Below, one piece after another: positions 37,123-38,195 of a stretch of DNA of 64,000 nt. Numbering within the stretch: position 1 is the first letter of the stretch; every line of letters starts with the position of its first letter. The stretch is from a virus. Both the position numbers and the translations under genes were made by a program. The notes below the pieces were generated by a model that was not told the origin of the DNA, did no database searches, and saw only the letters and a list, made by a program, of their open reading frames with translations. The stretch is from the IMG/VR virus record IMGVR_UViG_3300009164_000039; one strand, written 5' to 3'.

Positions 37123-37980
37123 ATGGACACTAAATCCGTCAAAGCACCTGCATCAAATCCGCTAGCAAAACATTTTAGACAACCCGCAATTTATCTTGCA
37201 CTACCAAGTCTTGGGCGCTGGTGGCCAGAAGGTTCACTGGACATGCCTGAAAATATGGAGATTCCTGTCTACCCAATGACCACAAAAGACGAAATCTTGC
37301 TTCGCACTCCTGATGCGTTGTTGAATGGATCTGGTGTTGTGGGTGTTATACAAAGCTGTTGCCCAAACATTAAAAATGCATGGGACATGCCTAGCATTGA
37401 TGTGGACCCTGTGCTGATTGCTATTCGCATCGCCAGCTACGGACACCGCATGGATTTTGGCGGACAATGCCCGCACTGCAATGAAAGCAATGATTATGCA
37501 ATTGACTTGCGCACAGTAAGTGACGGAATGAAATGCCCGGACTTTGATATTCCTGTGGAAAGCAATGATCTAAAAATTGTGTTGAAACCACAAAGATATT
37601 TTGCAGTGAATCAAAATAATCAACTGCGCTTTGAAGAACAGCGCATCATGAGCATTGTTACAGATGATTCAGACCCTGAACTAAAAACCAAAATGTTCAA
37701 TGAAAGCATGACCAAACTAAATCAGCTGAACATCGACGGCCTAGTATCCAGTACTACTTCAATCACAGTAGAAGATCAGGAAGTGACCGACGAAGCATTT
37801 ATCCGTGAATTCTTTGAACAAACAGACAGCAAGATTGTGCGACTGATTCAAACACGACTAACTGAAATGGCCATGGAAGCCAACGTCAAACCTGTGCCTG
37901 TCAGTTGCATGGAATGCAAAAAGCCATTCACTATCACAATCACATTTGACTACGCAAGTTTTTTCGCAACCGGCTCCTGA
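37123..37980 (+). CDS. gp26: baseplate hub assembly protein (T4 gp26-like); candidate tape-measure chaperone
   Basis: YLALPSLGRWW, VYPMTTKDEILL, IDVDPVLIAIRIASYG and CPHC...CMEC zinc motifs. Confidence 0.85.
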   Translation: MDTKSVKAPASNPLAKHFRQPAIYLALPSLGRWWPEGSLDMPENMEIPVYPMTTKDEILLRTPDALLNGSGVVGVIQSCCPNIKNAWDMPSIDVDPVLIAIRIASYGHRMDFGGQCPHCNESNDYAIDLRTVSDGMKCPDFDIPVESNDLKIVLKPQRYFAVNQNNQLRFEEQRIMSIVTDDSDPELKTKMFNESMTKLNQLNIDGLVSSTTSITVEDQEVTDEAFIREFFEQTDSKIVRLIQTRLTEMAMEANVKPVPVSCMECKKPFTITITFDYASFFATGS

Positions 37981-38039
37981 CATTAGACAATGACGCAATT
38001 TCTCGTATGATCGAGGGTTACGAGAAAGAGTCACGAGCC
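37959..38039 (+). other. predicted -1 programmed ribosomal frameshift signal
   Basis: T TTT TTC in the gp26 frame (37959-37965); 6-nt spacer; stem 37972-37981/38030-38039 enclosing a perfect 9-bp hairpin 37999-38007/38019-38027; -1 frame open from 37950 to 38195. Confidence 0.7.
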
Positions 38040-38195
38040 ATTAGAGAAGAAGCGTTGCGTTTTAGTTGGTGGATGCGTGGAGGTTTATCATATGAAGACG
38101 CAATGATACTCAGTCGAGAAGAACGCGAAATCATTTCAGAAATTATCAAAGACAACTTGGAGAACACCAAGAAGTCAGGCATGCCAATGTTCTAA
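37965..38195 (+). CDS. gp51-like baseplate hub assembly segment, probably expressed as a frameshift extension of gp26 (first internal ATG at 38007)
   Basis: WWMRGGLSYEDAMILSREEREII motif; no SD before ATG 38007; frame open back to the slippery site. Confidence 0.7.
   Translation, partial: RNRLLTLDNDAISRMIEGYEKESRAIREEALRFSWWMRGGLSYEDAMILSREEREIISEIIKDNLENTKKSGMPMF

Follow-up and report, generated by a model that had tools for sequence, protein, structure and literature searches.

The tail assembly chaperones (TACs) gpG and gpGT of bacteriophage λ are reportedly made from one gene by a −1 frameshift, an arrangement that is said to be conserved among tail chaperone genes (Levin 1993; Xu, Hendrix & Duda 2004), and a frameshift is likewise reported to give rise to the E and E+E' proteins of phage P2 (Christie et al. 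2002). The λ slip site is G GGA AAG and is not known to require a downstream structure. Frameshifting at GTTTTT has been described for the TAC genes of Pakpunavirus and Andersonviridae phages (PMC12846349). In T4, gp26 and gp51 are listed as chaperones of hub assembly, both of which are required for assembly of the hub and tail and neither of which is a component of the virion (PMC3004832). The TAC genes of T4-like phages (gp26/gp51) were identified by Vladimirov, Gautam & Davidson (Virology 2022, 566:9-15, PMID 34826709), as judged from passages in papers that cite that work (PMC10885494, PMC12846349); a passage of the PRFect paper cites the same study, and a passage of a 2025 paper on phage Adele names it as the source for the polyT −1 signals that T4-like phages carry in TAC-N genes. 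Here we analyse a gene of this family in a stretch of viral DNA of 64,000 nucleotides (nt), IMG/VR virus record IMGVR_UViG_3300009164_000039 (the whole of which we refer to as the window), and present evidence that its 3' end carries a −1 frameshift signal. That the frameshift itself occurs at this signal is, judging from the sequence, very likely, and we have good confidence that the gene is a tail or hub assembly chaperone of the gp26/gp51 family, decoded in two ways, in a jumbo myovirus; the chaperone role taken by itself, which is argued from analogy, appears fairly likely.

The elements of the gene are as follows.

37123 to 37980, plus strand: open reading frame (ORF) of the short, TAC-N-like form, 285 amino acids (aa), with a PF12322 match and two Cys pairs (from Pfam, PHROG and AlphaFold)
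37947 to 37949, plus strand: TGA that closes the −1 frame three codons 5' of the slip site
37959 to 37965, plus strand: slippery heptamer T TTT TTC, of the X XXY YYZ type, on an invariant FF motif
37965 to 38195, plus strand: extension in the −1 frame, 76 codons from CGC to TAA, helical in the predicted structure, with an invariant W-x-M-R-G
38007 to 38009, plus strand: in-frame ATG of the −1 ORF, from which an ORF caller obtains an ORF of 62 aa

The 285-aa protein matches PF12322 (T4_baseplate) with 57 bits against a gathering cutoff of 24.5, the match extending over residues 41-282 of the protein and over 9-219 of the 219 profile positions, and it also matches phrog_150 ('baseplate hub', E 2e-20); the ORF at 37123-37980 is the one PF12322-like gene in the 64-kb window. 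Its Cys pairs, C116/C119 and C262/C265, are nearly invariant among PF12322 homologs, and F280 and F281 are invariant among homologs, T4 gp26 included. The ORF ends with AGT TTT TTC GCA ACC GGC TCC TGA, which places the heptamer in the X XXY YYZ register with the stop 12 nt further on. The −1 frame is open from 37950, directly after the TGA, and terminates at TAA 38193-38195; beyond the slip it encodes FFRNRLLTLDNDAISRM, with FF-RNRLLTLDNDAISRM across the junction. The predicted products are thus 285 aa for the short form and 281+76 = 357 aa for the long form. A first-pass annotation made from the letters of this DNA had claimed an in-register heptamer four codons before the gp26-like stop, a −1 frame open from 37950, products of 285 and 357 aa, and an ATG at 38007 that lacks a Shine-Dalgarno sequence and has its A inside a hairpin, and our reading of the locus agrees with it on each of these.

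The locus differs from λ G/GT in that there is no detectable sequence similarity and in that the short form is larger (285 aa) and carries Cys pairs resembling those of a Zn-ribbon. It resembles P2 E/E+E' and the TAC genes of Pakpunavirus and Andersonviridae, which are also tail chaperone genes of myoviruses with a −1 shift on a T-run and in which annotations routinely, and wrongly, show the downstream part as a separate hypothetical gene or as intergenic sequence. Those genes, however, belong to other protein families, whereas the slip site here is strictly T TTT TTC and is accompanied in the jumbo clade by a long-range covarying helix.

The nearest cultured relatives of the gene, at ~27-32% identity, are found in the jumbo myoviruses Phosso, Atu_ph07, PA5oct, 121Q/PBECO4, RaK2, Eneladusvirus, XacN1 and SCTP-2, and nearer relatives (40-54%) are found on IMG/VR contigs of at most 355 kb. 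Relatives were recovered by protein-level searches only; a DNA-level search of the phage collection returned nothing. We compared 73 unique loci of the jumbo clade, including ~70 IMG/VR relatives, and 78 unique IMG/VR loci of the cyanophage type. T TTT TTC is present, exact and in register, 3-18 nt before the stop, at 73/73 jumbo-clade loci, and it is kept at 78/78 cyanophage-type loci, where the extension is 60-69 aa; the heptamer is thus retained without exception across more than 150 unique homologous genes whose protein identity is 27-54%. RaK2, the Erwinia and Yersinia Eneladusvirus phages, Salicola phage SCTP-2 and Syn9 have this same pattern. The residue before FF varies (S, N, R, T, H, D, A or G) and its codon is nevertheless always NNT. 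Elsewhere in the homologous genes Phe is encoded by TTT in 71-75% of cases and the third codon position is T in 34-42%; if x-F-F is taken as conserved, these frequencies would yield NNT TTT TTC in 6-9% of independent draws. The conservation of the heptamer is far beyond chance.

The −1 frame is conserved along with the heptamer. It is closed 0-15 codons 5' of the heptamer in the homologs, with the stop abutting the heptamer at several loci, and past the slip it remains open for 71-77 aa at the jumbo-clade loci, with one exception, L035. The codon that follows the slip in the 0 frame is GNN and specifies a variable residue (A, G, V, D or E), and the same position read in the −1 frame is CGN, giving Arg in ~98% of genes; the −1 frame is therefore under selection from its first codon. 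The T-run and the open −1 frame, which the first-pass annotation had proposed to look for at the 3' ends of homologous gp26 genes, are both retained.

These comparisons also bear on a simpler account, in which there is no recoding: the downstream ORF would be a separate gene that is translated from its own start, ATG 38007, or by termination-reinitiation, and the T-run would merely encode FF. An ATG does exist at 38007, small ORFs are annotated at this place in the GenBank records of 121Q, Phosso, XacN1, the Eneladusvirus phages and Syn9, and an ATGA overlap of stop and start lies directly past the heptamer in Atu_ph07 and Phosso and at loci L010 and L063. The position of the first Met in the extension, however, is not conserved among the homologs, ranging from residue 1 to residue 37 and often falling within the invariant W-x-M-R-G core, and the extension of PA5oct, which is unannotated in its record, contains no Met at all. 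Protein homology spans the residues between the heptamer and the ATG; in Atu_ph07 and Phosso, tblastn homology covers extension residues that precede the ATG of the window. In addition, ATG 38007 is in the −1 frame without an obvious Shine-Dalgarno sequence and is buried in a 9-bp stem, and coding for FF does not explain why NNT always precedes it when the amino acid there varies. ATG 38007 is thus probably not the functional start of the extension, and we regard separate translation without recoding as very unlikely as an account of this locus, while separate initiation or coupling is possible in the few lineages that have an ATGA overlap.

The invariant W-x-M-R-G, a confident structural model and homology across jumbo phages indicate that the extension is a real protein domain. 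It is homologous to the RaK2 extension (hhalign probability 94.7%), and AlphaFold models it with a predicted local distance difference test (pLDDT) score of 89 as mainly two long helices and a short helical turn that joins them; neither the 62-aa nor the 76-aa version of the window extension has a match in Pfam or PHROGs. It could be argued that the heptamer and the −1 ORF are a relic that has been kept by descent and that the frameshift is not used in this phage. At L035 (2310-) the heptamer is present and a premature stop ends the extension at 52 aa, which may reflect an error in sequencing or decay of this copy, and T4 manages without a frameshift. The extension in the window is nevertheless of full length, with all of the invariant residues and a confidently predicted fold, and there is no second PF12322 gene within the 64-kb window that could supply the long form, so that we assign disuse of the frameshift a very low probability.

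Downstream of the heptamer the RNA of the window can form a structure with the following elements.

37966 to 37971, plus strand: 6-nt spacer between heptamer and helix (nearly every jumbo-clade sequence has its 5' arm starting at alignment column 14)
37972 to 37981, plus strand: 5' arm of a long-range stem, GGCUCCUGAC (from the minimum free energy (MFE) fold and covariation)
37999 to 38027, plus strand: perfect 9-bp inner hairpin (37999-38007 / 38019-38027), which includes the A of ATG 38007
38030 to 38039, plus strand: 3' arm of the long-range stem, GUCACGAGCC (from the MFE fold and covariation)

The outer stem (37972-37981 / 38030-38039) consists of 9 bp and one C.C mismatch. The MFE fold of 37966-38045 contains this stem and the inner hairpin at −21.5 kcal/mol (z = −2.27), a stability reached by 6 of 200 shuffles, and the spacer, outer stem and perfect hairpin that the first-pass annotation had predicted are the same elements. 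The inner hairpin occurs in many homologs, but its position and sequence vary. The 5' arm has a jumbo-clade consensus, GGCUYUUR, 6 nt past the heptamer, and its partner, YAARAGCC, lies ~55 nt downstream. In an alignment of 60 sequences, 33 have UA and 19 have CG at pair 18-83, and at pair 21-80 there are 34 with GC and 21 with AU; the observed covariation or percentage paired was reached by 0 of 500 shuffles, and slid controls were lower. Because third positions of synonymous Leu codons are coupled with non-synonymous K/R and S/I/V changes, the covariation is not due to coding alone. The compensatory stem changes that the first-pass annotation had hoped to see in homologs are thus found in the jumbo clade. 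The consensus partner is absent at six loci (L010, L058, L070, L084, L088 and L095), where the same 5' position pairs elsewhere. Over 70 jumbo-clade sequences the mean folding z-score is −3.6, and a long-span helix begins 1-7 nt past the heptamer in 97%. At the cyanophage loci the 90 nt downstream of the heptamer are weakly structured (mean z −1.1), and any stimulator there would be unlike the jumbo-clade helix. A short covarying palindrome (GGTCC-ATAT-GGACC / GATCC-ATAT-GGATC) is found ~10 nt downstream in a subset of the cyanophage-type loci L106-L185.

A homopolymeric site might alternatively act during transcription, with RNA polymerase slipping on the T6 run so that a U is added to or lost from some mRNAs and the long form is translated from these. 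The run is indeed homopolymeric and is extended to T7 in the XacN1 group, and two relatives, Mel-JY01 and LIS04, need a shift of +1 or −2 at their T-run, which indels would explain easily. Productive slippage by bacterial RNA polymerase usually needs runs of ~9 or more, however, and this run of 6 is shorter. Slippage during transcription would moreover leave no role for the X XXY YYZ register and the invariant C at position 7, or for a covarying helix at the 6-nt spacing that is typical of ribosomal stimulators. We therefore consider transcriptional slippage very unlikely and favour a shift by the ribosome.

The relatives just named depart from the common site as follows. In XacN1 (L098, 1486), Xoo-sp13 (L101, 1543) and Stenotrophomonas phage CM1 (L105, 2292), T TTT TTT replaces T TTT TTC, the 0-frame stop comes 30-33 nt later, and an extension of greater length (81-90 aa) retains an aromatic-x-[MF]-R-G motif. 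In the Microcystis phage Mel-JY01 (L103, 1090-2170) and the Listeria phage LIS04 (L104, 1486-2431), the extension lies in frame +1 (or −2) past a T-run at FF, the sites being C TTT TTT T GG and G TTT TTT A, respectively, so that the direction of the shift differs within the family. The LIS04 gene has a PF12322 match and the Mel-JY01 gene has no Pfam match; in LIS04 the 230-nt stretch at this place is annotated as intergenic.

T4 offers a two-gene counterpart of the locus. Both T4 proteins, gp26 (208 aa; E 9e-64) and gp51 (249 aa; E 4e-52), match PF12322, and they are paralogs (BLASTP E 2e-6). The gene for gp26 ends with GAG TTC TTT GAG TTA CTA TAA (…EFFELL), three residues past FF and without a slippery site, whereas gp51 runs in frame for ~49 residues past its equivalent of FF, VF-K-LL, and those residues match phrog_634. 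As we read these sequences, T4 has one gene for the short form and another for the long form. The likeness to the window is that the proteins belong to the same family, PF12322, with a short form that ends just past FF and a long form that has a helical tail of ~50-76 aa; the difference is that T4 has two paralogous genes on opposite strands and no heptamer, whereas the window has one gene and a −1 frameshift. We considered and rejected a placement of gp51 downstream of gp26 in T4, where it is gene 25 that comes after gene 26, gene 51 being divergent.

The marine cyanophages connect these two arrangements. The 'gp26-like' gene of Syn9 ends with GCT TCT TTT TTC GGG TAG, and its −1 frame reaches the end of the annotated 47-aa 'gp51-like' ORF, giving a product of 67 aa. 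This 67-aa extension matches phrog_634 ('baseplate hub assembly catalyst', E 7e-30), and a profile of cyanophage extensions that includes Syn9 aligns to residues 207-244 of T4 gp51 (E 8e-4). The frame relation in Syn9, together with the matches to gp51 and phrog_634, indicates that one recoded gene yields the gp26-like and gp51-like forms. The two cyanophage ORFs (gp12 and gp13 in Syn9) share the heptamer, the −1 relation and the family with the gene in the window; they differ in that the stop is 3 nt past the heptamer, in that the extension matches phrog_634 and the tail of gp51, and in their weak downstream RNA. The proposal that gp26 and gp51 are the equivalent of G/T in the T4 superfamily is supported, since the two are PF12322 paralogs and gp51 carries the extension in frame.

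The surroundings of the gene in the window are those of a large myovirus. T4-type core genes are present, namely those for the major head protein, protease, portal, a gp46/47-like nuclease and a gp55-like late sigma factor, and the earlier description of a T4-like phage is apt to that extent; the phage is nevertheless a relative of the jumbo phages and not T4-like in the narrow sense. Synteny also identifies a candidate tape measure gene.

33612 to 37052, minus strand: divergent ORF of 1146 aa, putative tape measure, adjoining the portal gene (from synteny)

The order of portal gene, gene for a large protein and divergent gp26-like gene is common to the window, PA5oct, 121Q and Phosso, and in RaK2 and pEa_SNUABM_50 the syntenic large neighbour is annotated as tape measure; from this synteny and these annotations, the 1146-aa ORF is probably the tape measure protein. 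The homolog in Mel-JY01 and in LIS04 has the tail tube gene on one side and the tape measure gene on the other, which is where a chaperone gene classically stands. AlphaFold models the short form with a pLDDT of 88, and a Foldseek search of BFVD with this model matches 'baseplate hub' proteins from many myovirus groups, the top matches being named 'Baseplate hub assembly protein, T4-like', with TM scores of 0.84-0.86. BFVD also holds proteins of 384-669 aa with the gp26 fold, from phiRSL1, Erwinia phage Special G, Klebsiella phage Eowyn, Achromobacter phage Motura and others, which may be long forms fused in frame or may have additional domains. A profile search of PDB sequences returned nothing for the short form or the extension, and a search of the ESM Atlas with the N-domain gave no usable match. 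The PA5oct record carries an 'ESI-MS/MS' note on the portal and on the large structural protein and none on the gp26-like gene, which is a weak hint only. The interpretation of the gene as a chaperone of the G/GT type draws its support from the T4 paralogy, from the chaperone slot in Mel-JY01 and LIS04, and from a weak match of the N-domain to the TAC of HK97.

From the recoding signals and their conservation, the family membership and the two-gene equivalent in T4, we infer the frameshift, its efficiency and the chaperone mechanism as follows. Most ribosomes would stop at TGA 37978 and release the 285-aa short form (TAC-N, gp26-like). A fraction would pause at the helix that lies 6 nt past U UUU UUC, and the two tRNA-Phe would re-pair one base back (UUU/UUC to UUU/UUU), so that translation would resume in the −1 frame at CGC (Arg) and continue for 76 codons to give the 357-aa long form (TAC-NC), which would correspond in function to T4 gp51. 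Judging from the analogy of λ G/GT and P2 E/E', the N-terminal part that the two forms share would coat the tape measure protein, and the rare C-terminal extension would couple the complex with tape measure protein to assembly of the tube and hub. Neither form would be expected to be retained in the virion.

Several of our results weigh against parts of this reading. With respect to the long form, the window extension is not significantly similar to the tail of T4 gp51 (hhalign probability 3.7%), and when hhalign compares the window extension with the profile of cyanophage extensions, alignment is confined to the FFR junction, relaxed and global settings also being non-significant; under relaxed settings an S..L..ER.I motif was lined up, without significance. 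The first-pass view of the locus as a fusion of gp26-like and gp51-like ORFs thus holds for the gp26-family ORF and the frameshift relation and does not extend to significant similarity with the gp51 tail, and the label 'gp51-like' rests for the window on position and on the bridge through the cyanophages. With respect to the role of the gene, the putative tape measure ORF is transcribed divergently from the chaperone gene and does not lie downstream of it, unlike in λ, where the gene for the tape measure has G/GT upstream of it; the 1146-aa ORF has no Pfam match, and BLASTP comparisons of it with T4 gp29 and with the syntenic Phosso protein were not significant. A structural comparison with tail assembly chaperones, which had been suggested as a check, gave a divided result. 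Foldseek found no match in the PDB for the short-form or extension model, whereas a wide VIA-align search gave a weak match of the N-domain (residues 10-112) to the HK97 TAC 2ob9_B (Z 5.9; root mean square deviation 5.5 Å; 84/104 residues), which is within noise; it is the only match listed by VIA-align whose aligned range lies wholly inside the N-domain. With respect to decoding, the ATGA overlaps of Atu_ph07, Phosso, L010 and L063 would permit translational coupling too. Finally, with respect to the RNA, the window fold beats its shuffles only moderately, both arms of the outer stem encode conserved residues (RLL and K/R-A), which makes the nucleotide conservation partly coding, and RNAalifold finds no consensus structure in the aligned jumbo-clade sequences. 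The RNAalifold consensus is likewise empty for the cyanophage alignment, and it was given these empty results that covariation was judged by explicit pair counts and per-sequence folding statistics.

Two further features lie past the extension. In the large non-coding gap that follows, 38509-38643 (minus strand) strongly matches the full-length Rfam model RF01718, Polynucleobacter-1 RNA (110.9 bits against a gathering cutoff of 37, E 5e-25); by sequence, the RNA of the gap is at least partly a member of this known small RNA family, and the match hints at a freshwater, Polynucleobacter-like host. Directly adjoining this RNA, at 38671-39099 (minus strand), is an ORF of 142 aa that encodes a SegE-type GIY-YIG domain standing alone (PF19835, E 4e-34; phrog_447) and is likely, to judge by its domain content, the remnant of a homing endonuclease.

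The first-pass annotation knew of no prior description of such a system. As far as the citing papers convey it, the TACs of T4-like phages were in fact identified by Vladimirov et al. in 2022, and the principle is thus published and not new, with the window being a well-supported and previously unannotated example of it. Searching full-text literature for frameshifts in the gp26 or 'baseplate hub' genes of cyanophages or jumbo phages, we met with nothing direct. Two points may be new, namely the reach of the frameshift into the clade of jumbo phages and the covarying long-range stimulatory helix. We suggest, tentatively and with slightly less than even expectation, that if the 2022 paper omits this clade, ours is the first description both of phages of the RaK2/121Q/PA5oct/Atu_ph07 type and their uncultured freshwater relatives making the long form by a −1 frameshift and of their stimulator, a long-range helix of 8-11 bp that follows a 6-nt spacer and closes a domain of ~55 nt, with compensatory changes at synonymous and non-synonymous sites.

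Annotation of this gene can go astray in other ways. In Yersinia phage fHe-Yen9-04 (L099, 689-1564) the gp26-like gene is labelled 'Lead, cadmium, zinc and mercury transporting ATPase; Copper-translocating P-type ATPase', an obvious mis-annotation that was probably triggered by the Cys pairs.

If the frameshift operates as we propose, the annotation of hundreds of jumbo-phage and cyanophage genomes would be systematically wrong at this locus, where the extension appears as a hypothetical gene of its own or as a tiny 'gp51', or goes unrecorded, as in PA5oct and RaK2. The locus would also provide a compact natural −1 frameshift cassette with a stimulatory helix that has phylogenetic support. The giant-phage clade and the marine cyanophages would then join a near-universal rule among long-tailed phages, by which two forms of the tail chaperone are made through programmed frameshifting, and T4 would represent a derived state, in which two paralogous genes have replaced one recoded gene.

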